A stretch of DNA of 64,000 bases from positions 49,110,401-49,174,400 of the forward strand of contig CM120641.1 of assembly GCA_051362555.1 (NCBI GenBank), in the 5' to 3' direction. The notes under the pieces are model-generated. The model saw only the letters and a program-made list of their open reading frames with translations. It was not told the DNA's origin and did no database searches. Source of the DNA: Lingula anatina. Taxonomy: Eukaryota; Animalia; Brachiopoda. The translations under genes and the position numbers were made by a program. Every line of letters starts with the position of its first letter. Positions within the stretch are counted from its first letter, which is position 1. This document shows, piece by piece, positions 6,001 through 64,000 of the stretch.

Positions 6001-9000
6001 GGAGGCTGAGAATATTCTCCACCAAACAAAACAACAAAACTTTTACTGTTTCAGTTTAATGAAAAACGATGAGCCAATGGAACTTAATTTACAAATAACA
6101 AGGAAATCTTTATATTCACACAATTGATGACAATATAAAACCTGTAATGACTGTGTACAGATATTATTCACCTTATATACGAAATGTACAGACATGTAAC
6201 AGGGGTATGAAGTAGTGTAATGGCTCCTTACCTCATGAACCTGGGATTGCACCGTTTTTCTTATCACTGGGATGAACTCCTCCTTGAAGGAATATGCATT
6301 TGGAGACAGAACTTGATACAGATCTAGATGTTTGGCTAAAAAAAGAAGAAAAACCACAAAGACTAACTTTTTTGGTCCTTAAGCTATTGATGATCCAGTA
6401 GAACCATCTTTATGATACAACTACTACAAACTTTTTTGTTTACAAAATACTACCTTTCAAGCCATTTTGTTTGAGCCATTCCTCTGATATTTCAGATACA
6501 ACTACAAACTTTTATATTTATAAAATACTACCTTTCAAGCCATTTTGTTTGAGCCATTCCTCTGATGTTTTAGCCAGGAACTTTGGCATCTCTATCCTCA
6601 GGGGGTTACTGTGCCCTGGGGGGCGGGGCAGAAACTGGGACTGGGGGACCTGGGTCACCTCCATTGATATCTGCAGGAGACATATATTACAGCTTTGGTC
6701 ACAATATTAACTATTTCTTGTTTAGCTAGGGGTTTCTTGGCTATATAATTTCTATATGGTGAGATGAGTTTAAATGGTATTCATAGAATTTTATAATTAA
6801 TTATTAACAAATAAAGTGGGTAATGTGAGTAAAGGTGTGTTAAAGAGTAGCATACCTCATTCTCAATGCTGACCAGTGCGTCACCCATCATTCCCTTCCT
6901 CATCTCTTTAATCTTGTTAATCACATCCTGGGCGTTCTTGATCTCCTTCAGCAGTAAGCTGATATCTGAGCCAGTGTAGATCTGTTCCTGATGACAGCAA
7001 ATGGAAAACACATTACTACATGGAACTACTCCATTTTTGTATATCTATTGCTATTTAATCTACTCCCCTATCACTGTACTCATTATTACTACTTTATCAT
7101 CTAACTCCATAATATAACCAGAAACAAATCATTTCTTGTTAGTTTTTTAATGATACATGTTCAGTTAAGTTTGTAGCATTGAATAATTTTTCTAAATTTT
7201 CCTAATGGTATTTATGGAGCATTGTTTAAAAAAAAACAAGCAAATGGGCACAATCTTTTAACTTTTCTTTAAATGTAATTAAGAAACACATACAAACATT
7301 TTATTTGCTTAATCCATTAATTTCTATATAAGCATGTATTGTGTTTCTCCCATAGTTGTAAAAATTAGTATCATCAGACTTAACCCTTTACCATTCACAA
7401 CTATCAAATTAAACACACAACAGAAGACACGCATCATTGTAGACAGAGTTAATGTAATCCTACATCTGTGGGTTTGTGAATCAATAACTTAATGTAGTGT
7501 ACTGGCCTAATCACCCTCTGCACTCTGGGCTATATTTAATCAATGTTCATTGACTGGAGTTTGTAATAATTAATAAAACCAATGATATCAAAGCAACACT
7601 CACCTCTGAAGTAGATGTGTAACAGTGATATCTCCCACGAGATTCAGCTGCTAGGGTCTTTAATGTCAGCTGTAAAGAAAAATTGCTGTATGGGCCACAG
7701 ATATTTACACGTATATATATATATATTTACACGTATATATTTATATTCTTAAAAATATACACATAGGTTCTTGATTTTTAATAAAAAGGAAACCAATATG
7801 TTGAATCATATAACACCAAGAGAAAAGTATAAAATCATCACAAGTTTTGACAACATTAACAGTAAGAAATGGAGGAAGAATGCAATTTTTACCAGCAAAT
7901 GTAATACATATGTATGGCCATATATGAAAGCAAAGTAATACAGACAAGCACTGTATGAGAGCTGTCAGAGTGTCTTACATTAGTGAGGTGGTTGCTGCAG
8001 TCAAATGCCACAGTGTGAAGAGGCTCATGTTTTCCTACCCCCATCTGAAGTATATAATCTGTCAGCACCTCAGAACTCTGATCAGGTCTGGAAAGGACAG
8101 GAAAACCAACCACATGTCATCAACAGTGATATTCCATTGACAAGATTCAGAGTATTTGATAAGTCAACATATATAAACTGTAATGAGTAAATAGAATGAC
8201 ACTGTACAAACACACGCAAAATGCACTTTAAAGTGATTTGTTTAACCTGGCAAAACAATGCACATGATAAGGCAGGTGAATAATTTGTACATACTTCATA
8301 CGGAGAAAATATTATGTTACCTGTGCACTAAAATACAACAACAGGATTTAAAATCATTTAAAACAAAAAATTAGATTAGTTACCAAATATAGATATCTAG
8401 CTGAATCTATTTGGGGGAGTTTGTGACTACTGTAAAACTTACACACTGCCCAATATCAGTACTATCTGGTTGATATGCTGTAAAACTTACACACTGCCCA
8501 GTATCAGTACTATCTGGTTGATATCCTGTAAAACTTACACACTGCCCAGTATCAGTACTATCTGGCTGATATGCTGTAAAACTTACACACTGCCCAGTAT
8601 CAGTACTATCTGGTTGATATCTTGTAAAACTTACACACTGCCCAGTATCAGTACTATCTGGTTGATATCATGTAAAACTTACACACTGCCCAGTATCAGT
8701 GCTATCTGGCTGATATGCTGTAAAACTTACACACTGCCCAGTATCAGTACTATCTGGTTGATATCCTGTAAAACTTACACACTGCCCAGTATCAGTACTA
8801 TCTGGCTGATATGCTGTAAAACTTACACACTGCCCAGTATCAGTACTATCTGGTTGATATCCTGTAAAACTTACACACTGCCCAGTATCAGTACTATCTG
8901 GCTGATATGCTGTAAAACTTACACACTGCCCAGTATCAGTACTATCTGGTTGATATCCTGTAGTCTATAGATGTGTTTCATGGCCTTCAGTAAGTTACAG

Positions 9001-12000: not shown

Positions 12001-12030
12001 ATATGGGTTCTAGTAATACTGGCATAAATC

Positions 12031-12063
<33 letters not shown>

Positions 12064-12216
12064 AATGTAAGTATCTGGCTGATATTATGTACTTTGTTTA
12101 ATATGTGCTGACAAAGGTAAAATAAGACTAAAATCACTACTGTCTACTGGTGATAAAATCTTACATTTTACATGTACAAGTTCAAGCAATGTATCTCATA
12201 TACATAGAGTTAAAAA

Positions 12217-12251
<35 letters not shown>

Positions 12252-12266
12252 TGTGTGTATATGTGC

Positions 12267-12335
<69 letters not shown>

Positions 12336-12434
12336 TGCACCGATAGTTTAGTAAAAGACGTTTGAAAACACTGCCACTGCTTACTCTTCGTCTCCAATAT
12401 CGTCTTCTGTATCACTTGCTTCTGGCGATGACAT
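1..12434 (-). CDS. VWA3A: von Willebrand factor A domain-containing protein 3A-like, multi-exon; 3' end beyond window start
   Basis: GT-AG exons from probable ATG 12434 (MSSPEASDTEDDIGDE). Peptides VTHVNQT, KIFGSIVEK, VYLFTSGVPD, LAHSTGGRFHWF and VWA motif RVAILIDTSGSM resemble VWA3A as I recall it. Confidence 0.8.
4124..4272 (-). repeat. 71-bp x2 duplication spanning a VWA3A splice acceptor
   Basis: catgagg..ccacct|ctg recurs at 4124, 4195 and partly 4266; about 51 nt exonic + 20 nt intronic. Confidence 0.9.
4284..4528. mobile_element. MITE family A, degenerate copy
   Basis: Imperfect TIRs catgaccatgtttcaccaaca / tgttgatgaaactgggtcttg; interior (ttatcctgtgg, ctagata, ggctgctatcctca, actgtccagagg) shared with 61612-61871. 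Confidence 0.75.
4752..5098. repeat. About 59-60-bp intronic minisatellite, about 6 copies, no exon sequence
   Basis: Unit tgttcactgtaagacactggtgaaatcattgtgttaggtgagataaactgtagaaatt; stops about 15 nt from the donor of the exon at 5116. Confidence 0.9.
6415..6570 (-). repeat. 78-bp x2 duplication spanning a VWA3A splice donor
   Basis: aaaatactac|ctttcaagccattttgtttgagccattcctctgat twice; donors at 6530 (real) and 6452. Confidence 0.9.
8431..8960 (-). repeat. 48-bp x11 array spanning a VWA3A splice donor
   Basis: tgtaaaacttac|acactgcccagtatcagtactatctggttgatatcc every 48 nt from 8431 to 8911; top unit is the end of the exon encoding DINQIVLILGSV. Confidence 0.97.
12030..12331. repeat. (TG)n/(GA)n microsatellites in VWA3A intron
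   Basis: Dinucleotide runs at about 12030-12063 and 12217-12331. Confidence 0.95.
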
Positions 12435-14910: not shown

Positions 14911-17279
<2,369 letters not shown>

Positions 17280-18631: not shown

Positions 18632-20887
18632 TTATTGTTCAAACTGAGCCTTATTCTTGAGGAGATAAGCTGCTAGGTATTCTATTGGGTTTGGAGGCCT
18701 GAAAGAAGAAATGAAACCATGTGTTTATAAAATATGTGTGGGCTATGACAATACTTCACTTCTCAATACTTATAATAGACAACTTCAAACTGTAGGATAT
18801 TAAACACACGTTGAGGACATAAACCACTTTATGTTAAACTTATCTAAGTACAAGTTATAACTGTTTGATCATATTTGAACAGATCAATATCATGAATCAC
18901 TGTCACACAGAATACTAAAATTTACCGCCTCTTGACAAACCTCACAGCCTGTCAATTATCTTGACACAGTTTTAATTCATGAGGAATCCGATAGCAGAAT
19001 TTGAATAAAACCATCACTTAAACATGGATTATGGACTTTTTCATTTTCCCAAATTGTAACATAGTTATTGTGAGTGTCAGGAAAGAAGGAAGTTGTATAG
19101 ACATTACCTTTCTTTTCCTAAGACAGACATGCCCTGTATTAAGATAGGGACTACAGTCTGGTTTAGGTGTGTGTAGAAGATGTCTTACCTTTCTTTTCCT
19201 AAGACAGACATGCCCTGTATTAAGATAGGGACTACAGTCTGGTTTAGGTATGTGTAGAAGATGTCTTACCTTTCTTTTCCTAAGACAGACATGCCCTGTA
19301 TTAAGATAGGGACTACAGTCTGGTTTAGGTATGTGTAGAAGATGTCTTACCTTTCTTTTCCTAAGACAGACATGCCCTGTATTAAGATAGGGACTACAGT
19401 CTGGTTTAGGTATGTGTAGAAGATGTCTTACCTTTCTTTTCCTAAGACAGACATGCCCTGTATTAAGATAGGGACTACAGTCTGGTTTAGGTATGTGTAG
19501 TAGATGTCTTACCTTTCTTTTCCTAAGACAGACATGCCCTGTAGTAAGATAGGGACTACAGTCTGATCTAGATAAGCTCTGGTAGGGAGAGACTGGAGAT
19601 CTACTTTACTCCTCTTGGCTGGGGCTTCCATACTCTCTTTTTCACTTTGGATTATTTTCTGGACAAGGAAAAACAAATTAAATATTATAAGTAACTTTGG
19701 TGACTACCAATCATGCACAATTTACCTGGATAGATAACTTTTACTAATATTCAGATACTTAATTCTGCACATCTTTCTTTCTACTTAAAATAAAGGGATT
19801 TTCAATCAACTTATATACAAACCTCACAGCAATACAAAATGTAGCACGAAAATTCATGCGTTTGCACTCCTATTGATGACTCTGATATGTATTGGCTGTG
19901 CTAACACAGCCAATGCATATCAGATTTGTCTATAGGAGTGCTAACGCATGAATTTTCGTGCTATACAAAATGAAGTAAATCTTGTGCGGCACTAAAGGAA
20001 AAAAATATTCTGCCACTATTTTATGGGACAATGAACAACAACTTATTCATTTATCACAGAAGAATTATTTGTGAACATACTCTAATATTTGCACTAATTA
20101 AATTTCTATGACACTTGTAAGGGAGAAATTACCAGTATAAAAGACCTTCAATCTCAATCATTTTATACCATCTCATTTTATAAATAGAGAAAGAACTACA
20201 GAATCATAATTATTTTGGGTGATTGTGGCACTTACAATTAAATGTAAATGCAAATCTTGGCATAAAGGTTTCAGTGAAGAACCATTACCTGGATATTTTC
20301 TGCCAGCCCATGGTCAGCTTGCTGTGTTTCTGTGGTCAACTCAGGCTCAACAGAGGGAGCTTGTTGTGGATCTACGGTTAGAAATTAACACATGGTCATT
20401 TTTTCAAACACCAAATGTAATCTGTTTTAGTTCGCGTTCTGCCTTTACCATTAGGTTCCTTAATGTAAACGGGTTGAATTAACTTGAGCCAGAGATGTCT
20501 TTCATTCCCAAGTCAAATACATGGACATTTGACACGAAACTTCCAGCTGGGAGGAGCTTCGTGTACACAATTCTACTTCACTCGTAGAGTCGGAATACAC
20601 AGTGCAACGATCCTGAACTAGAGTCGTACACTCTGGTTCACAGGTTCAGCATAACATCCGTAAGAAATGTCGACACAAACCACATGAAATTTCGATTTCT
20701 ACTCCAGAGACAAAGCAGCATGTGTAAAGCTACTTAGAGTTAACAACACAATTGTTCAGCAAACATGACCTTTTAAACAGGTGTAGTAATTTGAAATCAA
20801 AAGTATATCAGATATCTAAGCTTAATTACTCAAATTTTACAAAGTAGTTCAGATATGAATGAAAAGAAAATACAAACCGTCCGCCAT
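18632..20887 (-). CDS. DPY30: Protein dpy-30 homolog (COMPASS/WRAD subunit), 4 exons, 101 aa
   Basis: Exons 20887-20878, 20371-20289, 19658-19513, 18698-18632 join in frame and give [53 protein letters not shown], the Dpy-30 motif. Confidence 0.95.
19104..19570 (-). repeat. 81-bp x6 array spanning the DPY30 exon 3 donor
   Basis: ttac|ctttcttttcctaagacagacatgccctg.. with donors at 19511 (real), 19430, 19349, 19268, 19187, 19106. Confidence 0.97.
19842..19963. mobile_element. 122-bp fully palindromic MITE with 9-bp target-site duplication (Mutator-like TSD length)
   Basis: tagcacgaaaattcatgcg..attggctgtg-ctaa-cacagccaat..cgcatgaattttcgtgcta, flanked by tacaaaatg at 19833-19841 and 19964-19972. 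Confidence 0.88.

Positions 20888-21774: not shown

Positions 21775-21777
<3 letters not shown>

Positions 21778-21822
<45 letters not shown>
21778..21822. repeat. A45 homopolymer (U-tract in presumed symplekin 3' UTR)
   Basis: 45 consecutive A, about 120 nt past the symplekin stop. Confidence 0.9.
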
Positions 21823-21823
<1 letters not shown>

Positions 21824-21938
21824 CAGCTTTCTGAGAAACTCGATCTTTTTTCAACTCTGCTATATTTAATGAACAGAAATTTCTTTTTAATCAGCTTTTC
21901 AGATTTAGTTGACGTGTAAACAACAACTTCATCAATGC

Positions 21939-36046
<14,108 letters not shown>

Positions 36047-42400: not shown

Positions 42401-44131
42401 TGTATAAAAAAATGGAGGTATCAACTTCACTGGATTTTTTTCAATAAGGCTACTAAATTGTCCTAAGATTGATTTTCATGAAATTTTCTGTTAATTTTTA
42501 TATGTGGCACTTTCCTTTATTTGCATCCAATTTTTTAAAAAATGCATGCACCAGTTTTTATGTTGTGAAATGTGTACTATCTATTGACTGATTTAAGTAA
42601 AAGATGTAAGGCAGTAAGATTTTTATTATTAAATATGTGTGTATGTCTATGCAAAGCTAAAGTATGTATAAAAGCCCTTAAATGCTTATGTGAAGCTATA
42701 GTTGTTTTATTATTGTTTAAATTGTTAAAAATTGGTTAAATTTGATTAGATGTTCATGTACCTTGTATCATAGCTTAACATAATATCAATTACAGTGTAT
42801 AAATAAGTGTCAGTGAAATAGGTTTTTAAAAAAAAATTAAGTTTCTTAATTTTTTTCGGTAAAAAAGGTGTAGATTATTGTACACAGTTTGGATACTGTA
42901 GGTGTAGATTATTGTACACAGTTCTCACACTAGATGGACTTCCAGTCAAACTTGTAGTGTGTATTAACACACATATTGTTAACATCTACTCTTGTATTTA
43001 TTGATCAGATCAGACCTGTGATGTGGGTAGCAGGTGCCTGTTCTCACACCAGATAGACTTCCAATCAAACCTGCAGTCTATATTAATACACACATGTTAT
43101 TAACATCTACTATTTATTAACCAGATCAGACCTGTGATGAAGGTAGCAGGTGCCTGTTCTCACACCAGATGGACTTCCAGTCAAACCTGGACATCTGTCA
43201 GTCTGTGTTTAACATCCCTGGAGAGGAGGTGGCCAGGAGGGTGGACTTCACTAATGCTTACTATGGAGCAGACAGACCCAAGGGAAGCAGAATTGTGTTT
43301 GTGAATGGTAAGGAAACACTTGTGTACAGGCTTGCACAGGTACAATTATAAAGTGGTTGTAAAGATGTAAGGTTAATTGTGTAGAGCTATATCAAGTTGT
43401 GGAAATTTTTCCTGTTGTAAATATTTGGGAAGCACTTGTCAGCTCTCCTGCACAAATGGCTAAGTTTCTAGTCATTATGGTTTGAACTACCTCTCTACTG
43501 CCTGTCTTAGTAAGCTGTATGATTGTAATAAGCTTGCCATCAGTAGGGAAGCCTAATTTGGGTTATTAAGTTATATTATTTCACTATCACATCATATGTT
43601 TTTAATTCAGGCTCCATAGATCCTTGGCATGCCTTGAGTGTACTAAGAAACCAGAGTTCCACTGAGGTGGCCATCTTCATTAATGGTACTGCTCACTGTG
43701 CTAACATGGAGTCTGCAGTGCCACAGGATCCTCCAGCTTTAACACAGGCCAGACAGGTAAGTGATCATGTCTTAACACAGGCTAGACAGGTAGGTGATCA
43801 AGTCTTAACACAGACCAGACAGGTAGGTGATCAAGTCTTAACACAGTTAACTTGATCACAGTTCTGTTTTGTAGTTAGATATTAAAAACTATATTCTAGT
43901 TACAGAACAAACCTGATTTTCATTATTTTTAGTATATAATTTTTAAGACAACAAGTAGGGAAATTCCATTTTTTATTAAATAGCTTTTAATAAAATTATG
44001 ATACTGAAATTAATATCTCCATATTTTTTTCAATCCAGAAAATTTCCGACATAATTGGAGAGTGGCTGAGAGATGCTACAGGACATGCAGGCAAGAAAGA
44101 TCCCAATACGTTATATTTTCAGAAACTCTAA
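36464..44131 (+). CDS. Family S28 serine peptidase (thymus-specific serine protease / PRSS16-like), secreted or lysosomal
   Basis: Signal peptide [20 protein letters not shown]; QPLDHF, QRYWVN, EHRFYG, GGSYPG (catalytic Ser), [28 protein letters not shown]; last exon 44039-44131. Confidence 0.9.
38883..39010 (+). repeat. Three copies of an S28 acceptor junction
   Basis: cag|taccc(c/a)ca(t/c)attgtg at 38904, 38937 and 38992 (real). Confidence 0.85.
39670..39884. mobile_element. MITE family B (PIF/Harbinger-like, 3-bp TSD TAT)
   Basis: Imperfect TIRs with tagatcgatcta near both ends; tat on both flanks; colinear with 50930-51142. Confidence 0.85.
40379..40709 (+). repeat. 34-bp x10 array spanning an S28 donor; resumes at 42866-42923
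   Basis: tgtacacagtttggatact|gtaggtgtagattat, donors from 40398 (real) to 40704 and again at 42898. Confidence 0.97.
40710..42868 (+). mobile_element. Non-autonomous LTR retrotransposon-like insert: 5' LTR about 40710-41161, PBS, one ORF, PPT-like end, no 3' LTR
   Basis: TGTAGTGATCCG..CGGTTATTACA imperfect inverted ends with TATAAA (40957) and AATAAA (about 41060) inside; TGGCGAGCTCCCAGG at 41164; aaaaaagg|tgtag at the far end; interrupts a tandem array. Confidence 0.7.
41223..42347 (+). CDS. Intronless 374-aa acidic ORF in gag position of the LTR insert; function unknown
   Basis: Starts about 45 nt after the PBS; internal repeats [21 protein letters not shown] / [21 protein letters not shown] and DAE(I/L/M)L motifs; no RT, integrase or zinc-knuckle motif seen. 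Confidence 0.6.
   Translation: MLYEDEDQYEDPDIYSRLLDCLGGISSVLKTQETSKRDALLLSNSLRNLWEVMKEETTEYDNENELSFEAIISSIRLEVGQRTTVGEDSCDEETAIGKEVREGIQSNEVVISGVADKSAKEEFPGAEMLQLPDGGNNNVVSDVADNAKSPEFEILKPLMTSGDSDVLKSPDAEILQFPDEERSSPCDAELLKSADDEMLKFPCDKMMKTPDVEMLRVEKMATNKTKLVENVCYHEDNEENDKQVKEKTEQNRYYENNDGNDRNDEQVMEKEKLHVGEMDNDKAKLIENACYQEDNEENDEQVKEENDLRTEERDNDMVNLNILAYYKDKDRNEKQGKKTDEFLDALERNEKLYLNLKGTEKWRYPPHCKLRHFF
42921..43190 (+). repeat. About 116-bp x2.5 array spanning an S28 acceptor
   Basis: cag|atcagacctgtgatg at 43009 and 43125 (real); gttctcacac..gacttcca.tcaaac at 42921, 43040, 43156. Confidence 0.9.
43739..43846 (+). repeat. 33-bp x3 in-frame array spanning an S28 donor
   Basis: agacag|gtargtgatca with donors at 43757 (real), 43790, 43823; reads [22 protein letters not shown]. 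Confidence 0.93.
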
Positions 44132-44575: not shown

Positions 44576-44654
44576 AAAATGCATTTGCACATCTATTTAT
44601 GAAGCTGTATTTATAAAATGCATTTGCACATCTATTTATGAAGCTGTATTTATA
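44576..44654. repeat. 39-bp x2 tandem duplication between convergent gene ends
   Basis: aaaatgcatttgcacatctatttatgaagctgtatttat twice. Confidence 0.85.
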
Positions 44655-51000: not shown

Positions 51001-54000
51001 CGGCTTAAATGTCCGTCCAGCCTACTACAAAATGTAAGGGGGTAATTAGCTTCCGTGCGCCTCGCTGACTGCAATTTAGCGTGAACGCCCAGGGAGTTAG
51101 GTCAATCTAGTAAGATCGATCTAAATCTGTGGGAATGCAGCTTCACTGTTTGTGCTGTAACCAGGTGTAAATACTTGTGTTTTGGTACTTTGTTACATAT
51201 TAACACATTCTATACTGGTCCTACATTTGATATTATATACAACACAATTTTACCTTGCAGTTTCAGCCACTTGAGGTTTGTGAAGCTTGAAGAGCTGCTG
51301 GCAGCAGAGCTTCCTCTGTTACCCACTGAGTTTGAGTCCCTGGTAAAGAAGCAGTGCTGGGATGCCCATGATATCCTGACTAAGAGGTGAGTTAATACAC
51401 TGAGTTTGAGTCCCTGGTAAAGAAGCAGTGCTGGGATGCCCATGATATCCTGACTAAGAGGTGAGTTACCACAAAGACTAAATACCAGATAAGAGATCTG
51501 TACATGCTGCACTGAAGCTTAATGTAGCCCTTGATGCTAAATGATGAGTAGTAAGTCAAAGAGAATTATCCTTTTTTATTATGCAAGCTATTCTTTGTGT
51601 GCATACCAGCTTGTACATGTACTACTATTATTTAAAGTCACCTGTTAGATAAGTGCACTGTGTACCTGGACTATTTCAGCTGGATCCCAAGCTGTGCCCA
51701 GCTGTTCAGAGAGAGACCTGAACTGTGGGAATATCTGGTGCCTGAAGATGACAATGAGTCTACAGAGCTGGTGCAGGAATTCTTTGGCAGCGTGGCTGCA
51801 CTCATGTCTCTGCAGCTACGAAGCATGGTGGTCAACTCTCTGGCAGACTTCCTCAAGTTCTTTGAGATTCATGCTGTAAGTTTTAATATACAGGTTTTCT
51901 GAGATACATGCTATTTTGTGTTCTTTTGGATTTAGGTTTTTGCACATTCAGGTATTTTGACAGAGATGTGATAGCTGTACATGTAATAACCAGTGCATTG
52001 CAGGAAATCATTTTCTTGTGGAGTAGTGGCCTTAATGGGTATACACAGTTTTATCACCAAATCACAGTGTATTTCCAGACATCCAAGAAGGTTGGTCAGA
52101 TTCCTTCCCATCATTTTACTATGTTGCTCTGTCTATTTCCAGGCTGGCAATGACTTTGATGGGGAGTTTGATGAGCTGCAGTTTGTGATGGCCCAGGTGA
52201 TGATCATCAAGTTGAGAGTGGAGGAACCCAAGATTTTGTTTGACCCGCCATTCAGGGAGTGCAAGGATATCATCCTCAGATGTTTCTCTGACATCATAGC
52301 CAGTGGAGAAGGTATCCCCAGGGTAAGTGTATGACTGGGTTCCCATAGATAAATTGATCTAACAGATCTGAAGGCGTTTCTCACTAAATTGCTTTCAGCT
52401 TAACCAGCTTAGATGTCTGGCCTGCCTACTAAAGCTGCTAAACGATAATTAATGACCCCTAGCTTCAGTAGGCGTGACAGACATTTAAGCCCCTTAAGAT
52501 GATTGCAATTTAGAGAGAATTCCCTTGGAGATAGATCAATCCACATTTAGTACAATAGGGTCTGGAAATGGTCCCAAAGTGTGTTCTCTGACACCATAGC
52601 CAGTGGAGAAGGCATTTAAAGTTACAGTGTGTCACCATAAAATGCTTTGGTAATGTACCTTGAATATGTATCTTGATTGTGTAAATGGCACCCTGAATTC
52701 TGTTAATATCATCTAACATACAAGCTGACATGGCCTCTTCTAATGCTGATTTAATAATTGCAGGTGGAGGTTGAGATGGCCCCAGAAATGAGAGGTCAGA
52801 AATTGTTGCTGCGGTCAGTGAAAATAGAAGAAAGCTTGGTGACAGATTTTACAGACAGAGCCATGGAGATCTTCAGAGTGAACACTCTGGGACCACAGAA
52901 GTAAGATCAAAGTGATGACAATAAATTCTAGGTAAAGGAGTTAACATTTGAGATCTAGCTTTTAAAGTAAATACTATTGAAGACTTGTAGAAGCAGTTGC
53001 AGGTGATCAAAAAGACCAATCTAATCTTAACGACATTTAATCTCTGAAATTGGTTTTGATAATTTTTTGTAAACCTTCCAGGTATTTGAATACATACAAA
53101 AAGTACAGTGACCTCCTGAACAACAAGGCAGACCAAGACGTTACTGCGTTCCTCAAAGAAGAACATTCTATTCTGGCATTCAAAAAGGTTTGAAAACACA
53201 AAGATAGTAATGTGAATTACTGATAATAAATTAACATTAATGAATTATGTTAACCAATGTTTCTGCACAACACTTAAAGGGTTTGAAAGCACATAAATAG
53301 AAATGTGAAGTATTGATAATAAATTAAAATTAATGAAGAGGATTAACCAATGTTTCACCAGTTTCACCAATCAAAATAATTCTTTAAAGACAGGATATAA
53401 AATCTATAAACCAGCTTCAACTGTGATAAATATACTTCCAGAAAATCCACAGCTACATTGACCTGTGGAATGAGATAGCTCTGTTGAGGATCACAGTGCC
53501 ACTGAGTATGTTCTGTCTGGACTGTGTGGACCTGAACAGGGAGCTGTGTGACCGCTCCAACCGGCTCAAGGACAGACTGGTCAGTTTTGAGGTCAAGGAG
53601 AACAAGGAGCTGAATAAGGGGTGAGTAAACTGGACAGTACTTTTAATATGTAATAAAGGGTGAGTGAACTGGACAATACTTTTAATATGTAATTTGTTAC
53701 TGAAAATTGGGTGGGAAACAAGATACATTATCACAGTTAAGTTGACTTATAATTGACTGTTGTTGTTGTTGTTCCAGAATCATCAGGCAGTATGATGAGA
53801 TGTCAGAGACACTAAGTGGTAAACTGGAGACTACAGCTGATGTGGTAGAGCTAACACATTACCTGCAGAATGTAAGTGGTCTTACTTATATCACAGACCT
53901 ATTGGACTCTGTATAACACTGTTTGCTATCATATGGTAGTATTGTATAGAGAACATGAAGTGATGTGATATTACATGGTTTAATTGTGTAAAGCAGTATG

Positions 54001-57000
54001 ATGTCAGGATATTATACCAAAAAGAAAAATAAGTCTTGTTCAATTGTTTATCACAGGTCACCATTTCAGTTATATTTACAATAAATTTAAATTGACTTGC
54101 ATGTTTTTATCCTTTCTACACAGCAGTTATAAATACACAAATTTAAATATTTAGATTGATGTTCTAGCTGACTTGTAATATTTCCAGTCTACTGATGTGA
54201 CAGCCTACAAACTGAAGGAAGAGGTAGACGAGGCAGGAAACAGACTCATGTTTTTGTTGGATTATGCTATATTTGAAGGTAAGAATTATTTTCCTGATTA
54301 TTATTCATTTCTAAGAGGTAAACTTTTGATTTTCTTATGTTTTTTTTTCTCCAAGAAATACTGAAGTACCTGAAACACAGTGTGTCCTGTGCCATGGTAT
54401 CGCCTCCCTTACTATATCTGCTCATTAATAAAATGTATGTTATTGTAGCTGAGGACTTGAAGATTAACAGCAAAGTGTTCAAGTGGCCCAAGTCAGTGGG
54501 TAAAGTGTTTGAGTTGGCCCAGGGACGTATCTCTAACAGACGGGAACAAGTCGAGGAGGCAGTCAGGGCCAAGACACAGGCCTTTGAACAGAAACTCACT
54601 GAGTACAACAAGGAAGTGGAGTCATTCCGCAAGAAAGAGGTATGGATTCTGAAGTAAAACATTCAAAAACTTCTTGGAAGAATAGTTACAATTTGCTACT
54701 GGTAATAAATCCATTAGTATAAATGAGGGGTCGTATTTATATCATTTTTATGGTGAGTATGAAGAGATAAAATTTTGTGCCTCTCTTTTTGTGCCAAATT
54801 GATTTTTGTTTGACTGAAATTATGTTGAAATATCTGTATCGTTTGACTTTGTTATTGACCTATGTTGTTCCTGTTACTGTTACAATGGTGTGTATATTAT
54901 ATTGTAGATTATGAGTCCAGAGGAGATGAAGAACAATGTGGAGACCCTGACCAAGCTTCATGACAACCTGGAGGCCGCACGTGATGAGCTGGAGGCCATT
55001 AATGAGGAGGAACGCCTGCTGGAGTGGGAACTGAGCACCTTCCCCATTCTACAGGCCATGTTCTCAGCCAAGGAACCCTATGATAAACTCTGGAAAACTG
55101 CCCTCAACTTCCACCAGAAGAATGACATTTGGACCAATGGTAGGTTGAAGAAATATATACAATCTGTAATGCACTATACATAATACTGCACTACACCATA
55201 GACAACATTTTACCAGATTGTCTTGCACTGGGGGTAGACCACCTCACCACAGAGATCCAAGCCTTACTGCAGACATTTTCATATAGATCTCATCAAAACC
55301 TTTTTACAACTGAAGCTATATGTTTTTAGTAGAACTATTTACAGAGCCAGTGAAACTATAAAGACAGTTATGGTTTTCAGGTCCATTCCTTGGTCTGAAT
55401 GCTGAGGAGATAGAGAATGAGATCAGTGATATGTACAGAACAATGCACCAGTTGACCAAGAAGTTTGCTGACCAGGCAGGACCTAAGAGGATTGCAGAAG
55501 CCAATAGGAACAAGATTGACAAGTTCAAGCAGAACCTGCCTATACTGCACACTATATGTAACCCTGGTATCAAGGACAGACACTGGCAGTTGGTGAGTAT
55601 ATTCCACATGTAAAACAAGTGTTGCTATAACAACTATATCCACGGGTGGGTGCCAGCATGAGGTCAGGATTTGTCACATGTTTAATGTTTATTATAGTAA
55701 TCATACAAATAAAATGCACATCATTGTACATAACAAATGTTTCCATGAGTGAGATATACACTGTGATTAAGTGCTGTATACAGTGGTGTCATAGTGCAGG
55801 GAATTATTATTATGGTTGCTTTCTATATTTGTAGATGAGTGATGCTGTTGGGATGAACATCAGACCAGAACCTGAGACCTCTCTTAACCAGATGTTAGAG
55901 TATGGACTGACCAAACACATTGAAAAGTAAGTTATTTTTTTCATATAGTACACACTGAAAGCACTATATTATCAGGATGAAGACAAAGAGGGTTATTTGT
56001 TTTATATGATCAAAATAATATTCTTTATGCTGTGCAATACACATATTGCTGTTTTTGACAAATTTTCATTTGATACGGTGTCATTGTTTTTCCACATCAA
56101 AGCTCTGACTCACATTTTTATGATCAGTTTATGTCATTTGTATCTTCCATTGTGTCTTGTCTTGGCAGGTTGGAAGAGATAGGTGGCGCTGCTAGCAAGG
56201 AGTACTCCCTGGAGAAAGCTCTGGAGAAGATGAAGTTTGAATGGCAAGATATGCAGTTTGAGTTTGTGCCCTATAGAGATTCTGTAAGTGATTCATTAGT
56301 TTGTTCCTATAGAGACTCTGTAAGTAATTCATTAGTATGTGTGTCTACTTATATTTCATAATTCTATAAGAATATTTCATTGTTCAGGAATTGTGGATGC
56401 AGAAGTTTTTGGGTAAATTATTGACAAACAATTTGGCAAGGAATAAAGTTGTGTACAGTAGTTAACATTTCACATTTCAGGGTGTGAGTATTCTAGCTGT
56501 CAGCAGTGGATGAGGTCCAGATGTTGCTAGATGACCACACTGTAAAAGATGTCCTTACAGTAGTTTACATATCATATTTCAGGGTGTGAGTATCCTGTCA
56601 GCAGTGGATGAGGTCTAGATGTTACTAGATGACCACATTGTAAAAGATGTCCTTACAGTAGTTTACATATCATATTTCAGGGTGTGAGTATCCTGTCAGC
56701 AGTGGATGAGGTCCAGATGTTACTAGATGACCACATTGTAAAAGATGTCCTTACAGTAGTTTACATATCATATTTCAGGGTGTGTGTATCCTGTCAGCAG
56801 TGGACGAGGTCCAGATGTTGCTAGATGACCACATTGTAAAAGATGTCCTTACAGTAGTTTACATATCATATTTCAGGGTGTGTGTATCCTGTCAGCAGTG
56901 GACGAGGTCCAGATGTTGCTAGATGACCACATTGTCAAGGCTCAAACCATGCAGGGGTCACCATTTGTCAAACCATTTGAGGCAGAGATGAAAGAATGGA

Positions 57001-60000
57001 CAGAGAAACTGCTACTTATGCAGGATATTCTGGACTCTTGGCTCAAGGTAGGTACTGAGATGTCTTAGTAGATTGTTTTTTTTCAAGTGTGTTTAAATTG
57101 AAGTTATATATATAACAATGCTGATTGGCTGTACCTGGAGCTTATATTGTAGTTGTTGTGATATGACACCCGGTGTGGCATGTAGACAATACATAGACTA
57201 ATACACTACATATCATGGTGTCTCTTTCTATTCAGTGTCAAGCCACCTGATTGTACTTGGAGCTATTTATATGATATAATACATATGATACTATTTCAGT
57301 GTCAAGCCACCTGGGTGTACTGGAAGCTATATATATATATATATATATGATATGATATTGTATATATGATATTATTTCAGTGTCAAGCCACCTGGCTGTA
57401 CTTGGAGCCTATCTTCAGCTCTGAGGACATCATGGCTCAGATGCCAGAGGAGGGCAGGAAGTTTGGTATAGTAGACAGCTACTGGAAGGACATCATGACA
57501 GAGTCTGTGAAGGATCCTCACTGTTTGGTGGCCACAGCTCAGAACAACATGCTGGGGAGACTGAATGAGTCCAATGTGCTACTAGAGGAGATCCAGAAAG
57601 GACTGAATAACTATTTGGAGAAGAAGAGACTGTTCTTCCCAAGGTAAGTCTGAGATATTAAATAACTATTTGGAGAAGAAGAGACTGTTCTTACCAAGGT
57701 AAGTCTGAGATATTAAAGAACTATCTGGAGGAGAAGAGACTGTTCTTCTCTAGGTAAGTCTGAGATATTAAATAACTATCTGGAGAAGAAGAGACTGTTC
57801 TTCCCAAGGTAAGTCTGAGATATTAAATAACTATCTGGAGAAGAATAAACTGTTCTTCCCAAGGTAAGTCTGAGATATTAAATAACTATCTGGAGAAGAA
57901 GAGACTGTTCTTCCCAAGGTAAGTCTTAATTCCCGAATGTCTGATGATATAAGGAGGGAAGTAACTACCTACACAAACTAGTCAGTGTTATGTAATGCCT
58001 GATAATGCTGTAGCAGAGAAGTTAGAGGTCTAGGAACATTAAATTAGTATATAGTAAATTATTAACTGGTGAGCCAAGTAAGATGATGAAATACCCTATT
58101 TGCAAATGTCAAGTTTTAGATCAGTAAAAATCAAGGCATCTGCTGGTATAATAGATCTGACCTTTGACCTATAATTTACTTAGGTTCTTCTTCCTGTCCA
58201 ATGATGAGTTGCTGGAGATCTTATCAGAGACCAAGGACCCGACCCGCGTCCAGCCTCACCTGAAGAAGTGCTTTGAAGGCATCGCCAAGCTGGAGTTTAC
58301 TGAGGAACAGGAGATTTTGGGGATGATCTCTGCTGAGAAGGAGACAGTGCCTTTTGTCAGTAAAATCGTACCAGCTAAGGCCAAGGTGAGCACACCTGTT
58401 TGAATGATTTCTGGCTAAAACGGTGCCATTTGTCAATAAGACTGTACCAGCTAGGTGCAGCATATTTTATTATTTATGGCTAAGGCAGATGTAGTATTGG
58501 CATCAGATTTATCTGTGAGTGTTGTTATATTATTAAATGCTGTTCAGGTTATAGTGCTGTGTATTTGTAGGGCATGGTGGAGAAATGGCTGATTCAGGTG
58601 GAAGAACAGATGTTAAAGAGTGTACGTGATGTGATCAGCAAGGCAGTCAAGGGTTACCAAGAGACACCAAGGAACAAGTGGGTATTGGAGTGGCCTGGTC
58701 AGGTTGTCATCTGCACCAGCTCCATCTACTGGACATCTGAGGTGACCGCAGCCATGAAGGAGAAGAATGGAATGAAGGTAATAGTTGTAGATACGCTGGG
58801 CTTCAATTAATGGAGTTTGCTGATGTAGCATATCCTCACTTCTTTGTAGATCACAAGGATCTGTTTTACAATCTGTGATGATAGAATTTGAAACATTCCA
58901 TTCTGTTAACTCGGGTTATATTGCTAATATTTGTACTATAAATTATTATTGCCATTAGCAACCTTACTGTGTTTTGAGTTACTGTCATATTTGATAATGT
59001 TCTCAAAAATACCTAGATATGAGAGTTAGTGTAATTTACAGAAGCACACGGACTGCAATATTGAACATCAAATAATGCCTAATTTGCAGAAATATCTAGT
59101 GAACAGTTTATAAACATGATTTCTATTGTTTATAGAAATACCTAGATAAGAGTAATGAGCAGTTGGTTGAGATAGTAGAGCTGGTGAGAGGGAAGCTGGA
59201 TGGGGGTGCCCGTGTCACCCTGGGAGCTCTCACTGTCATTGATGTCCATGGTGAGGATAAGATTTATATTGTTCTCCTTTTTTATCATTGATTTATATTG
59301 TACTACTTTCTTATCATTGATTTAGTTCTTATGTCAATTTGATCATTATTACAAAGTAACACATTGTATGAGTATTCAGCAGAATGCATTAATCAGGCTA
59401 GGCTAAAAATGAAAAAGAATCTTAAATGAAAACAATAAAATAAGCCATCTTAATCTCTGTATGTACATTTATCTTTCTAGCTCGTGATGTTGTCAGTAGT
59501 CTGGCAGAGAATAACGTCACCAGTGCCAATGCCTTTGATTGGTTGAGCCAGCTACGCTACTACTGGGAGAAAGATGTCATTGTCAGGATGATCACTACAG
59601 ATATTAACTATGGCTATGAATATCTGGGCAACTCTGCACGTCTTGTCATCACAGCACTGACAGATAGGTGTTACAGGTATATTTCTAGCAATAAACATAC
59701 TAATCTGTATTGAGTGTTAGGCAAATTTTATTAAGTTGTTTGTTTGTGCACATATTCATGTGGTATACAGTGTAAGTCAGTGTATTCAGCTAGTTGTTTG
59801 TGTGTGCGTGTGCATTTGATGAGTATATCCCTTGTCTTTCAGGACATTGATGGGCGCCCTGAAATTGAATCTAGGTGGCGCTCCTGAGGGACCTGCTGGT
59901 ACAGGGAAGACAGAGACCTGCAAGGATTTGGCTAAGGCTGTGGCTAAACAGGTAATTTAATTTGGCTAGGTTGATTTGGATAAGACTGTGGCTAAACAGG

Positions 60001-63000
60001 TAATTTAATGTGGCTAAGGCTGTGGCTAAACGGGTAATTTGATTTGGCTAAGGCTGTGGCTAAACAGGTAATTTGATTTGGCTAAGATTGTGACTGAACA
60101 GGTAATTTAATTTGGCTAGGGCTGTGGCTAAACAGGTAATTAGATTTGGGTAAGGTAGTGGCTAAACAGTTAATTAGATTTGGCTAAGGCTATGGCTAAA
60201 CAAGTAATTTGATTTCCTTATGCTATGAATGAACAGGCAGTTCAACACAATGTTACTAGTCACAGCTAACACAATCTGCTCTCTGTTTCAGTGTGTTGTG
60301 TTCAACTGCTCAGATGGTTTGGACTACAAGGCCATGGGGAAGTTCTTCAAAGGTCTGGCACAGGCTGGGGCCTGGGCATGCTTTGATGAGTTCAACAGAA
60401 TAGAGTTAGAAGTGCTGTCTGTAGTTGCTCAACAGATCCAATGTATTCAGCAAGCCATTGGCAACAGACTGAAGAGGTTCATCTTTGAAGGCACTGAGCT
60501 CACACTGGATCCCTCCTGCACCATGTTTATTACCATGAACCCTGGATATGCAGGGCGCCAGGAACTGCCAGATAACTTGAAGGTGAGTTCACCATGAATC
60601 CTGGATACACAGGGCGCCAGGAACTGCCAGATAACTTGAAGGTGAGTTCACCATGAATCCTGGATACGCAAGGCACCAGGAACTGCCAGATAACTTGAAG
60701 GTGAGTTCACCATGAATCCTGGATACGCAGGGCACCAGGAACTGCCAGATAACTTGAAGGTGAGTTCACCATGAACCCTGGGTATGCAGGGCACCAGGAA
60801 CTGCCAGATAACTTGAAGGTGAATTTATGTATTACTGTAACCAGGAGTCCATCTGAATATGTTTATGTGATAACTTGAAGGTGAGATCAGCTTCATATAT
60901 TGTACACCCACCTTTTACACCTTACAACACAGCTCTGTAGATTTATCTTTGGAAATCCATTCATCCAGTCCACTACATAGTACTCATTGTGTAATTGTAT
61001 GCTGTAGGTGCTGTTCCGTACTGTGGCTATGATGGTGCCAGACTATGGGCTGATTGGTGAAATCTCCCTCTACTCTGTAGGATTTGTAGATGCTAGGAGG
61101 TAAGACTGTGGACATACATCTAAACCACTATCACAGCTAACATGCCTTTGACATTGAATTATGAATACAGGTTTATTAAGATAGTGCTGTATGGTATTAA
61201 AAGCTCTCTTTATCAATATGTTGTTTAACATAGAAGTATATCTGATATCTGTTATAACTCTCCATGGTTATGTATTTCCATAGCTTGGCTGGTAAGATTG
61301 TTGCTACCTATCGCCTGTGTTCGGAGCAGCTGTCGTCACAGCATCACTACGATTATGGCATGAGAGCCGTCAAGTCCGTCCTCACTGCTGCTGGCAACTT
61401 AAAACTCAAGTACCCAAAAGAAGATGAGCCCGTCCTACTGCTCAAAGCTATCAAAGATGTCAACTTACCAAAGTTCTTGGCACAGGTTAGTGGCGGCTGA
61501 ATTGAGACTTTCTCTGTTTTATTTTCATTTATATTTTTAAGATTACAAAAGTAGACAAGCAGTATCTTTTGTTGTATTAATATCTGAATGTCTAACTTGA
61601 TTTATATTTATCAGTTTCATCAACATTGGATAGCGCTATCCACTGGATAACACTATCCATTAAGTAATATTGTTATCCTCTGGGCAATTATCCTGTGGGT
61701 AAATTAATGTTTAACAAACACTAGATACTTATTTTTGTCTCTAATATTGCTTTCAAGTGGTTAAAAGAGGCTGCTATCCTCAAGAAAACTGTCCAGAGGA
61801 TAACAATTCTACCCAAAGGATTGTGTTATCCATAAGATAGCGCTATCCAGTGTTGATGAAACTGGACCCAGGACCTGACCACGACATTTTATATTTATTT
61901 TTAGGATGTTCCACTATTTGAAGGAATCATCTCAGATTTGTTCCCAGGAGTTTCCCTGCCCAAACCTGACTATGACATTTTCCTGGATGCTCTCAGAGAC
62001 AACATTGCTAAGAAACATCTCCAGCCAGTGCCATGGTTTATTGATAAGATTATCCAGGTTTGTCACTTGTAGCATTGTCATGAAAACAGCTTTCCAAAAA
62101 TGTAACTGAGGATAGATGTATACTTCTATTCCAAATTTTATCAGTGGTTTGCCATTCAGATGCATTTACCCATTTTAAAAATTGGACTAAATTCTGTTAA
62201 CTGTGGCAGAGATTTTTAAAGAATGGCAGTATTTTATACTTGTATGTCTTTCTAAAAAAATTCTTTGTTAATCCTTAGGTCTATGAAATGATCCTTGTGC
62301 GTCATGGTCTGATGATAGTTGGTGAGCCTCTTGGAGGGAAGACGTGTTCCTACCAGGTGCTGGCAGATGCCCTCTCTGACCTCCATGCTGCTGGGATGAT
62401 GGAAGAGAACAAAGTGATGTACCGCATCATCAACCCTAAAGCTATCACCATGGGACAGCTGTATGGATGCTTTGACCCTGTGTCACATGAGTGGTCTGAT
62501 GGTAAGATGATGACTTCAACTTTCTTTATTACCACACTTCTACTTAACTAAAAAAACTTAAAGTGTCTAGTTCCTGTTAAATTGATTTAAGGTATGAACA
62601 TGTTTAATATCAGTGGGACTGAAAACAATGAGAGCTGTATGTGTCTTTTCTCAGGTGTTCTTGCCAACACATTCAGAGAGTTTGCAGTGAACCCTAGTGA
62701 TGACAGGAAGTGGATTCTGTTTGACGGTCCTGTAGACGCTGTCTGGATTGAGAACATGAATACAGTACTGGATGACAATAAAAAGGTGGGTAACTGACAT
62801 ATATTGACATATGTATACTGACACAACACAAGAAGACATGAGCACAAGTAACACAATATGATTGAGAACATGAACACAGCACTGGATGAGAATAAGAAGG
62901 TGGGTAACTAACATATACTGACAAAACACAAGAGCAAATGCATCCAAATGATTACAATATCACATCAAACACATTTTCTTACTTCCTTTCAGTTATGTCT

Positions 63001-64000
63001 AATGAGTGGTGAGATCATTCAGATAATTACAATATCACATCAAACACATTTTCTTACTTCCTTTCAGTTATGTCTAATGAGTGGTGAGATCATTCAGATA
63101 ATTACAATATCACATCTAACACATTGTCTTCCTTCCTTTCAGTTATGTCTAATGAGTGGTGAGATCATTCAGATAATTACAATATCACATCTAACACATT
63201 GTCTTCCTTCCTTTCAGTTATGTCTAATGAGTGGTGAGATCATACAGATGAGTAACACCATGAACCTGATATTTGAGCCAGCAGACCTGGAGCAGGCGTC
63301 TCCAGCCACAGTCAGCAGGTGTGGAATGATCTACCTGGAACCTCATCAGCTGGGATGGAAGCCCTCTAAGCAGTCTTATATGGAGCATGATCTCCCTAAG
63401 AACCTGACAGCTGATGAGTCTGGGATGGTGAATGATTTGTTTGAGTGGCTGCTGGACCCCTGTCTGGAGTTCCTGAGACATGAGTGCAAGTTCTACATCA
63501 ATACATCCCAGATCCACCTGGCCCGCTCCATGATGAGGCTGTACACCTGTCTTCTGGATGAGATAGCTCTGTCTGGTACTGAGGGACAGGAACAGTTAAC
63601 TAGCCAACAGGTAAAAGGATATTTTCACGCCAAAACTGTGACATCAGTTTTGATTTCTGAAAAAAAAAAAGGAATTATGTTTGGATTGCAAGGGTTTAAC
63701 TGATGTTTTAAAAACATTGACCAAGAATAAAACTTCCACATAATCTATGATTTTATGTTAATCAAATAATTAATGAGAAATCTCTGATAATCTGTGTGTT
63801 TCAGATCACCCTGTGGCTCCAGGGGTTGTTTTTGTTTGCCCTGGTCTGTAAGATAATTAACAATCTCTGATAATCTGTGTGTTTCAGATCACCCTGTGGC
63901 TCCAGGGATTGTTTTTGTTTGCCCTGGTCTGTAAGATAATTAACAATCTCTGATAATCTGTGTGTTTCAGATCACCCTGTGGCTCCAGGGGTTGTTTTTG
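48058..64000 (+). CDS. DNAH3: Axonemal inner-arm dynein heavy chain 3, multi-exon, 3' part beyond window
   Basis: N-terminal LPPLP..LYQ and [20 protein letters not shown] match DNAH3 as I recall it; [37 protein letters not shown]1 [26 protein letters not shown]2 [22 protein letters not shown]. Confidence 0.9.
50020..50110. repeat. 18-bp x5 intronic minisatellite just after a DNAH3 donor
   Basis: gacat(a/t)gtgttatgtgtg repeated. Confidence 0.85.
50930..51142. mobile_element. MITE family B, second copy
   Basis: tgcattcccatagattttagatcgatct / agatcgatctaaatctgtgggaatgca TIRs; flanks tga and tca. Confidence 0.88.
51324..51468 (+). repeat. 74-bp x2 near-perfect duplication spanning a DNAH3 donor
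   Basis: cactgagtttgagtccc..ctaagag|gtgagtta, donors at 51387 (real) and 51461. Confidence 0.95.
52333..52575. mobile_element. Diverged relative of MITE family B
   Basis: ttcccatagat start, tctcacta, gctta.atgtc, gcctacta, tctggaaatgg end shared with the other two copies. Confidence 0.6.
53184..53360 (+). repeat. 93-bp x2 diverged duplication starting at a DNAH3 donor (mostly intronic)
   Basis: g|gtttgaaa.caca..ttaaccaatgtttc at 53188 and 53281. Confidence 0.8.
53613..53693 (+). repeat. 39-bp x2 duplication spanning a DNAH3 donor
   Basis: aataa.gg|gtgagt.aactggaca.tacttttaatatgt, donors at 53621 and 53660. Confidence 0.9.
56270..56340 (+). repeat. 36-bp x2 in-frame duplication spanning a DNAH3 donor
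   Basis: cctatagaga.tct|gtaagt.attcattagt, donors at 56284 and 56320. Confidence 0.9.
56454..56936 (+). repeat. 98-bp x5 array spanning a DNAH3 acceptor
   Basis: atttcag|ggtgtg exon-like starts at 56481, 56583, 56681, 56779, 56877 (real). Confidence 0.97.
57120..57412 (+). repeat. Decaying copies of a DNAH3 acceptor junction
   Basis: ttcag|tgtcaagccacctg at 57236, 57300, 57381 (real); remnant tggctgtacctggagc near 57127. Confidence 0.85.
57606..57926 (+). repeat. 55-bp x6 array spanning a DNAH3 donor
   Basis: ctgttcttcccaag|gtaagtct, donors at 57644 (real), 57699, 57754, 57809, 57864, 57919. Confidence 0.97.
58347..58456 (+). repeat. Decayed copy of a DNAH3 exon end after the donor
   Basis: gtgccttttgtcagtaaaatcgtaccagcta vs gtgccatttgtcaataagactgtaccagcta. 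Confidence 0.7.
59925..60215 (+). repeat. About 34-bp x8 array spanning a DNAH3 donor
   Basis: gatttggctaaggctgtggctaaacag|gtaattt; real donor 59952; the last copies are degraded. Confidence 0.95.
60532..60886 (+). repeat. 59-bp x5 array (plus remnant) spanning a DNAH3 donor
   Basis: gataacttgaag|gtga at 60583 (real), 60642, 60701, 60760, 60819; remnant at 60881. Confidence 0.97.
61612..61871. mobile_element. MITE family A with long TIRs
   Basis: cagtttcatcaacattggatagcgctatc / gatagcgctatccagtgttgatgaaactg, plus subterminal ggataacac/tgttatcc and tgttatcctctgg/ccagaggataaca. Confidence 0.85.
62746..62935 (+). repeat. 114-bp x2 duplication spanning a DNAH3 donor
   Basis: gattgagaacatgaa.acag.actggatga.aataa.aag|gtgggtaact, donors at 62786 and 62900. 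Confidence 0.9.
62951..63249 (+). repeat. 75-bp x4 in-frame array spanning a DNAH3 acceptor
   Basis: ttcctttcag|ttatgtctaatg at 62993, 63068, 63143, 63218 (real); 25-aa repeat with no stop. Confidence 0.97.
63779..64000 (+). repeat. 83-bp x3 or more array spanning a DNAH3 acceptor (truncated by window end)
   Basis: gtgtgtttcag|atcaccctgtggctccaggg at 63805, 63888, 63971. Confidence 0.93.

Follow-up and report, generated by a model that had tools for sequence, protein, structure and literature searches.

Mirage-type minisatellites across splice sites in the brachiopod Lingula anatina, with an unequal intron share that selection and later trimming may explain

Tandem repeats whose units run across an exon-intron boundary have been described in lancelets and in humans. 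In amphioxus these mirage minisatellites occur in Adh3, the globin genes BflGb6 and BflGb9, troponin C and PGBD5 (PMC3087553, PMC3902484); the cases are few lancelet loci, and the authors of PMC3087553, in the passages drawn on here, call their origin unclear. Among human variable number tandem repeats (VNTRs), the one at F7 IVS7 has 5-9 copies of a unit made of 4 exon and 33 intron bases, with only the first donor used, and the same partial source lists further donor-spanning VNTRs in 6-16, CBS, LAMIN B2 and PDGF (PMC1557585). Here we describe duplications of this kind in a 64,000-nt stretch of contig CM120641.1 of the brachiopod Lingula anatina (hereafter the window, in whose positions all coordinates are given), where they lie across the donors and acceptors of genes that include VWA3A, symplekin (SYMPK) and DNAH3. 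A preliminary description had noted that the repeat units reach a short way into the intron at donors and a long way at acceptors, and had proposed that the duplicated segment is delimited by nascent RNA bound in ribonucleoprotein (RNP), or else that selection keeps only duplications carrying a complete splice signal next to the exon. We find that the asymmetry is real and weaker than first drawn, and that it may come from selection followed by trimming of the units.

The Lingula arrays are mirage-type minisatellites, a type known from amphioxus and found here in a brachiopod. As in the passages of PMC3087553 used for comparison, tandem units cross exon-intron boundaries at donors and acceptors both, splicing is normal (here at the four arrays with visible RNA joints), and copy number varies between haplotypes (here at 24486 and at five polymorphic duplications); our unit lengths of 33-116 bp fall within the 10-160 bp given for amphioxus, where edge units diverge from inner ones. 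Unlike the amphioxus reports, in the parts considered, arrays occupy about 30 of 226 annotated splice sites (~13%, about one in eight) within a single window and differ in presence or absence among individuals. Those same passages hold neither a comparison of donor and acceptor intron shares nor a test for enrichment. The human VNTRs, as the excerpt of PMC1557585 presents them, share with ours a first unit across the exon-intron boundary, use of the most upstream donor and length polymorphism; they are single loci, in contrast to a dense feature in Lingula, and the intron-rich F7 unit at 5-9 copies is the reverse of the short-donor pattern seen here. That excerpt also has 6-16 and CBS using downstream copies, of which none was seen used in Lingula. 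A literature search that mostly excluded subscription papers, and in which most papers were judged by their listing, found no report of such arrays in Lingula and none of a comparison of intron share between donors and acceptors.

The window has 32-41% GC. Its annotation, which rests on open frames and homologues, places 113 introns in seven genes: VWA3A, a regucalcin-like gene, a small unnamed gene, SYMPK, a PRSS16-like protease, an EAPP-like gene and DNAH3. Of these names, regucalcin-like, PRSS16-like and EAPP-like are presumptive labels. A VWA3A exon matches the L. anatina VWA3A protein P0241 at 100% and the joined gene at 99.7%, and identity to homologues is 60-69% for DNAH3 and 61-62% for symplekin. 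The joined frames have no internal stops, all annotated introns are GT-AG after correction, and the median intron and internal exon are 282 and 126 nt. The small unnamed gene (18640-20887, minus strand, downstream of symplekin) has four exons, a frame of about 100 codons as annotated, and no identity assigned. Arrays were detected blind to the annotation in three ways, with Tandem Repeats Finder, a period scan and self-BLAST. This gave 31 duplications across splice sites, of which 30 (18 donor, 12 acceptor) have a measurable intron share, meaning the part of the unit that lies in the intron; the degenerate copy at 52284 was omitted from the share table and counted in the enrichment test. The shares at 1797 and 56261 were read by eye owing to indels, and the inner unit was taken for 57231 and 59925. 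All statistics therefore concern one 64-kb window and 30 arrays, with some shares read by eye. The donor duplications are as follows, with units and shares in nt.

6406..6573, minus strand: VWA3A exon 13 donor duplication, 2 copies, unit 78, intron share 36-39
8430..8962, minus strand: VWA3A exon 9 donor array, 11 copies, unit 48, intron share 8-13
19104..19574, minus strand: small unnamed gene, exon 3 donor array, 6 copies, unit 81, non-exon share 19-28
26041..26423, minus strand: SYMPK exon 24 donor array, 8 copies, unit 48, share 6-7
26551..27040, minus strand: SYMPK exon 23 donor array, 8 copies, unit 63, share 22
28717..28844, minus strand: SYMPK exon 17 donor array, 3 copies, unit 44, share 14-18, GT lost in copies
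33920..34334, minus strand: SYMPK exon 5 donor array, 9 copies, unit 46, share 2-3
40379..42923, plus strand: PRSS16-like exon 8 donor array, ~11 copies of 34, share 15, split by a 2.15-kb insertion
43739..43846, plus strand: PRSS16-like exon 10 donor array, 3 copies, unit 33, share 15-24
51324..51468, plus strand: DNAH3 exon 8 donor duplication, 2 copies, unit 74, share 8-11
52284..52615, plus strand: DNAH3 exon 10 end, degenerate copy displaced by a miniature inverted-repeat transposable element (MITE)
53183..53356, plus strand: DNAH3 exon 12 donor duplication, 2 copies, unit 93, share 88
53613..53693, plus strand: DNAH3 exon 13 donor duplication, 2 copies, unit 39, share 31-34
56261..56341, plus strand: DNAH3 exon 20 donor duplication, 2 copies, unit 36, share 14-17
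57606..57926, plus strand: DNAH3 exon 22 donor array, 6 copies, unit 55, share 17
58344..58453, plus strand: DNAH3 exon 23 degenerate donor-side duplication, unit 76, share ~34
59925..60215, plus strand: DNAH3 exon 27 donor array, ~8 copies, unit 34 (first 48), share 7-12 (first unit 21)
60532..60889, plus strand: DNAH3 exon 28 donor array, 5 copies of 59 and a decayed distal copy, share 8
62746..62917, plus strand: DNAH3 exon 33 donor duplication, 2 copies, unit 114, share 74

The acceptor duplications are given in the same form.

1797..1930, minus strand: VWA3A exon 25 acceptor duplication, degenerate, 2 copies, unit ~86, share ~42 (by eye)
4116..4278, minus strand: VWA3A exon 19 acceptor duplication, 2 copies, unit 71, share 12-30
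24486..24784, minus strand: SYMPK exon 28 acceptor array, 5 copies, unit 61, share 28
30006..30260, minus strand: SYMPK exon 15 acceptor array, 4 copies, unit 64, share 38-39
32037..32280, minus strand: SYMPK exon 10 acceptor array, 4 copies, unit 61, share 31
32958..33108, minus strand: SYMPK exon 8 acceptor duplication, degenerate, unit 87, share 30-52
38883..39009, plus strand: PRSS16-like exon 6 acceptor array, 3 irregular copies, proximal unit 55, share 34-37
42921..43189, plus strand: PRSS16-like exon 9 acceptor duplication, unit 116, share 51, adjoining the 40379 donor array
56454..56938, plus strand: DNAH3 exon 21 acceptor array, 5 copies, unit 98, share 36-39
57231..57408, plus strand: DNAH3 exon 22 acceptor array, 3 copies, units 64 and 81, share 33-36 (proximal unit 53, TA expansion)
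62941..63249, plus strand: DNAH3 exon 34 acceptor array, 4 copies, unit 75, share 38-49
63771..64000, plus strand: DNAH3 exon 35 acceptor array, unit 83, share ~39, continuing past the window end

For the 18 donors the intron share has a median of 16.5 nt and ranges over 2-88 nt; for the 12 acceptors the corresponding figures are 38 nt and 21-51 nt. This difference is significant on midpoints (Mann-Whitney p = 0.003), holds when microhomology is assigned in the worst case against it (p = 0.022), and appears in the uncurated script values as 18.5 against 37 nt (p = 0.014; 18 donors, 10 acceptors). The arrays named in the preliminary description are all present and span annotated splice sites, and nearly all of its 13 values agree with ours to within a few bases or fall inside the microhomology range. 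At donors, we measured 2-3 nt for 33919 (given as 3-4), 7-12 with a first unit of 21 for 59925 (given as 7), 6-7 for 26041 (given as 7-9), and the same 8 at 60532, 8-13 at 8431 and 15 at 40379. At acceptors, 28 at 24486 and 31 at 32037 were recovered exactly, and the earlier 20 at 4124, 39 at 30006, 39 at 56454 and 43 at 62951 compare with measured ranges of 12-30, 38-39, 36-39 and 38-49. The share of 11 nt noted at 51324 is within our 8-11, although this is a duplication of only 2 copies and does not belong among high-copy arrays. The four donors set apart as reaching further (6415, 26551, 53184 and 62746) do so, at 36-39, 22, 88 and 74 nt. These values, however, cover a subset of the arrays: seven measurable donors were omitted (19104, 28717, 43739, 53613, 56261, 57606 and 58344), so that a donor median of 8 in the earlier list becomes 16.5 over all donors, and only 3 of 18 have a share of 8 nt or less. 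On the exon side the median reach is 39 nt at donors and 38.5 nt at acceptors, and the acceptor intron reach of 38 nt is not longer than this. The exceptional reach is that on the donor intron side.

We compared these shares with a simulation in which selection alone acts. Signal lengths and pass curves were taken from 94 donors and 102 acceptors that carry no arrays, and breakpoints were placed uniformly on 86 array-free introns and passed through a site-strength filter under 8 settings. At array-free sites, splice information extends to +5 at donors and to about -19, weakly -28, at acceptors. Of the simulated donor junctions 83% pass by k = 5; for acceptor junctions the pass rate is 73% at k = 20 and rises to 89% at k = 30. 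The simulated gap in medians is 7-21.5 nt against 21.5 observed (P = 0.07-0.50), and it is reproduced in 8 of 8 settings. The gap can thus be explained without RNP and gives the footprint no excess to account for, while the selection reading is supported as far as the gap goes. Three features were not reproduced: how little intron the high-copy donors hold (P = 0.004-0.007), the concentration of duplications at splice sites, and how tightly the acceptor shares are grouped (P = 0.0001-0.006 with curated and 0.03-0.07 with uncurated values). The acceptor spread does fit the exon-side reach, pooled and truncated at 20-25 nt (P = 0.054-0.095). Weighting the simulation by microhomology left the simulated shares unchanged and was rejected as a cause of short donors. 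By eye, overlaps of 3-9 nt (null mean 0.7) or extra letters are seen at several junctions and no overlap at others, in arrays that have since been remodelled; such junctions may be comparable to the break-fill route of PMC8355091, a general path to a first two-copy duplication of this size for which the abstract gives no link to splice sites.

Separating the donors by copy number shows where the short reach lies. The seven two-copy donors have shares of 9.5, 15.5, 32.5, 34, 37.5, 74 and 88 nt (median 34). These values are in line with the simulation of selection alone (P = 0.53-0.68) and show no difference from the acceptor shares (p = 0.61). The nine donors with at least 5 copies have a median share of 10.5 nt and a maximum of 23.5. 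Across donors, arrays with more copies have a smaller intron share (rho = -0.61, p = 0.007; on uncurated values -0.67, p = 0.002), whereas copy number is unrelated to exon share (rho = 0.10-0.14). Unit GC was rejected as a driver of copy number (rho = 0.20, p = 0.29). A break placed by U1 would be expected to leave donor junctions clustered at +6 to +8, or at most about +15, and the two-copy donors show no such cluster. Since the least amplified duplications should be the best record of U1-sized breaks and are not short, the RNP footprint is unsupported at donors. For acceptors the proposal fares somewhat better, as 11 of 12 breaks lie 20-45 nt upstream, although the exon-side reach has an equal median. 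We conclude that the short donor reach likely arises after duplication and not at a U1-sized break.

Alignment of the unit's intron part with the intron after the last copy, made for 10 donor arrays, points the same way. Five of five two-copy donors align (p 0-0.022), while the multi-copy donors 19104, 26551 and 28717 do not (p 0.25-0.54); at 19104 the non-exon part has no alignment to the distal intron beyond +6, and distal intron flanks diverge in some multi-copy arrays. The unit at 57606 aligns with a 16-nt gap, as trimming predicts, though weakly (p = 0.044). Because multi-copy units mismatch the distal intron or align to it with a gap, the edges of today's units often differ from the breaks of the original duplication. 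The length of the first donor unit is divisible by three in 11 of 18 cases (P = 0.014, post hoc); among acceptor units the same holds for 3 of 12. The idea that leaky downstream donors are tolerated was considered here and is not supported, as only 4 of 11 in-frame units are stop-free against 39% for random in-frame units.

The 40379 array has a structure of its own. The 2.15-kb insertion at 40709-42865 ends with a short direct overlap and contains internal repeats and a 374-codon acidic, low-complexity open reading frame (41223-42347, plus strand); it is likely a mobile element, and terminal repeats were looked for in it and not found. Leaving the insertion aside, the entire intron (40398-43124) consists of donor-array units adjoining acceptor-array units, and its original middle appears to have been lost.

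Which copy is spliced could be seen in raw RNA runs labelled as the same species, for the region 24301-34500 at low depth. Reads join at the exon-adjacent AG of 24486 (12 reads), GT of 26041 (8), GT of 28717 (8) and AG of 30006 (4), meaning that the exon-adjacent copy is used at all four arrays, out of 30, with visible joints. No distal-copy splicing was found among the 15 of 24 RNA joints listed for this region. Depth over DNAH3 is about 0-2, and use of its sites rests on frame and homology. Within SYMPK intron 24, a GC-richer, exon-looking stretch on the minus strand (25890-25995), open for about 37 codons, is skipped by the RNA joints seen.

Comparison with contigs from other runs shows that splice-site duplication is ongoing and segregates among individuals. 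Run X3 has 122 nt, or two units, fewer than the window at 24486. At least five splice-site duplications are single in the window and present in other runs' contigs, two of the five in two runs each. The DNAH3 part of this comparison covers 15 of 76 joints and 12 of 43 inserts, in which MITE matches dominate.

60251..60293, plus strand: DNAH3 exon 28 acceptor, duplicated in run X6, tandem, intron share 37-41
61896..61981, plus strand: DNAH3 exon 31 acceptor, duplicated in run X6, non-exon share ~16 (uncertain, irregular array)
63546..63614, plus strand: DNAH3 exon 34 donor, duplicated in runs X1 and X6, 4 nt common to the window intron and 13 other letters
28452..28558, minus strand: SYMPK exon 18 acceptor, duplicated in runs X2 and X3, non-exon share ~48
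28983..29019, minus strand: SYMPK exon 17 acceptor, duplicated in run X3, non-exon share ~34

Taken together, we suggest with a probability of about one half that the unequal intron share is the outcome of purifying selection, followed by trimming and by amplification anchored on the one working copy, and not of a spliceosome footprint present when the segment was duplicated. The process would start from duplications across donors and acceptors, which are abundant and segregating. Where splicing takes the copy beside the intact exon, as at the four arrays above, the other copies would become intronic. In the simulation, survival would then need only the signal of the adjacent copy: for a donor about 5 nt, or fewer where exon sequence fills in, and for an acceptor about 20-30 nt. 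This requirement would set the floors and most of the gap. The 33920 array, with the shortest share, has a strong donor completed by exon sequence (score 11.1 against a median of 8.3). We speculate that slippage or unequal exchange follows, in which the exon part always has a master copy that cannot be deleted, whereas protection of the intron part ends where the signal ends. Erosion would bring the intron share down to about 5-20 nt for donors and to 30-40 nt for acceptors, and units rich in exon sequence would remain alike for long enough to be amplified.

Several observations weigh against this explanation. Selection through a splice filter cannot favour spanning over intronic duplications, and retention would need a 17-fold difference; survival and erosion by themselves leave the frequent first duplication at splice sites unaccounted for. 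No acceptor share exceeds 51-53 nt, and this includes four two-copy acceptors that erosion should not have reached. Age is approached here only through copy number, and the exon parts of high-copy arrays are 87-100% identical to the exon, without a clear gradient along the array. Trimming itself is visible in the one weak alignment at 57606, and the window and its 30 partly hand-read arrays are a small base.

The excess at splice sites is strong. Among intron-associated arrays with units of at least 29 nt in annotated introns, 30 of 33 cross a splice site, where about 37% would be expected to (P ~1e-10); the three purely intronic arrays (4754, 25121 and 59261) compare with about 63% expected of survivors. 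The list from Tandem Repeats Finder alone gives 25 of 28 (P = 1.4e-8), two-copy pairs span a site in 7 of 8 cases (a set chosen post hoc), and so do 5 of 5 polymorphic duplications among those listed. It is likely that some factor targets or retains duplications at exon borders. Purely intronic arrays at 4754-5105, 50020-50111, 59261-59324, 25121-25220 and 7701-7746 begin near sites, 11-14 nt past a donor or about 31-33 nt before an acceptor; these introns are short and the placement may be chance.

One alternative, unlikely in our judgment and still the foremost of those considered, attributes both the excess and the asymmetry to recombination at haplotype boundaries. Invasion and repair synthesis would stall where the match to the homologue ends and re-anneal upstream, duplicating the segment; as homologues match through exons and splice signals, the intron edge would be short at donors and long at acceptors with no part for RNA. 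Other individuals do differ by about 1% (X3, 111 places in 10.2 kb), 10 of 11 indels among those listed are intronic and come as near as +16 and -17 to splice sites, and three polymorphic units (63546, 28983 and 28452) contain intron letters that differ from those of the window intron. Lancelets, too, are highly polymorphic animals. Such a process would account for the enrichment at splice sites and for the occurrence of mirages in lancelets, as described in the available passages of PMC3087553. The two-copy donor breaks, however, lie at 9-88 nt, far beyond the conserved 5-nt signal, and each of the five two-copy donors aligned has a unit that agrees with the distal intron on its own chromosome; the excerpt of PMC1557585 adds that low-diversity humans have such arrays as well.

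An origin coupled to splicing, which widens the RNP proposal of the preliminary description, is a doubtful second. RNA held by the spliceosome or a paused polymerase, or the 3' end of a splicing intermediate, would pair with the template DNA, and this putative hybrid would position nicks or prime local re-synthesis, so that the segment around the site is duplicated. The excess across sites, including the annotation-blind count, fits this, as does an equal transcript-upstream reach of 39 nt (exon) at donors and 38 nt (intron) at acceptors (p = 0.85) and the narrow range of acceptor shares; breaks with complementary 3' overhangs are reported to give small tandem duplications (PMC8355091, abstract). 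The same range nevertheless fits the truncated exon-side reach and weakens on uncurated values, only 1 of 7 two-copy donors lies at 11 nt or less where a U1-sized peak would be expected, one of the polymorphic acceptor units contains no more than about 16 non-exon letters, and the enrichment of branch-like motifs at -30 to -11 is mild (41 seen against 24 expected). In a more specific and rather improbable form, splicing would seed the duplications through RNA ends made at splice sites, the cut 5' exon and the lariat tail, which invade the gene; the upstream hybrid of about 40 nt would set one break, and repair or RNA-primed synthesis across the site the other. If true, the spliceosome would act in the germ line as a site-specific mutagen, constantly adding copies of splice sites at about 1 in 8 exon borders of this animal. 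Fillers templated by cDNA, with next-exon sequence in the units, were searched for by eye only and none was convincing.

Least probable is plain selection with detection bias, in which intronic duplications decay unseen, exon-anchored ones stay recognizable and the short high-copy donors are an accident of a split resting on 9 arrays: the gap is indeed simulated by selection alone, and with intronic arrays four times harder to see the two-copy and polymorphic sets become unremarkable (P = 0.26 and 0.17), but 30 of 33 remains significant at that detectability (P = 0.004), the divergence rate of a neutral pair should exceed that of an anchored one by no more than a factor of about two, and the copy-number correlation persists on uncurated values.

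The window has further features. MITE-like high-copy elements lie at 39660-39880, 50929-51138, 52345-52575 and 61610-61870, with summed contig depth of up to ~350,000 in the bin containing the copy at 50929-51138. The copy at 52345 sits within the decayed donor duplication, and run X6 skips 61611-61908. At 45521-46840, in part of the EAPP-like gene, contig depth in X6 is almost nil at 90% likeness and normal in X1, which may be a filter hole or a divergent haplotype.

Duplications at splice sites can mislead gene annotation, and they have been proposed as a source of new introns (PMC3087553, passages used here). The asymmetry between donors and acceptors alone matters less because selection explains most of it. 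The density of the arrays, at ~13% of splice sites in this brachiopod, together with the duplications that still segregate, makes the origin of mirage minisatellites testable with one population data set.

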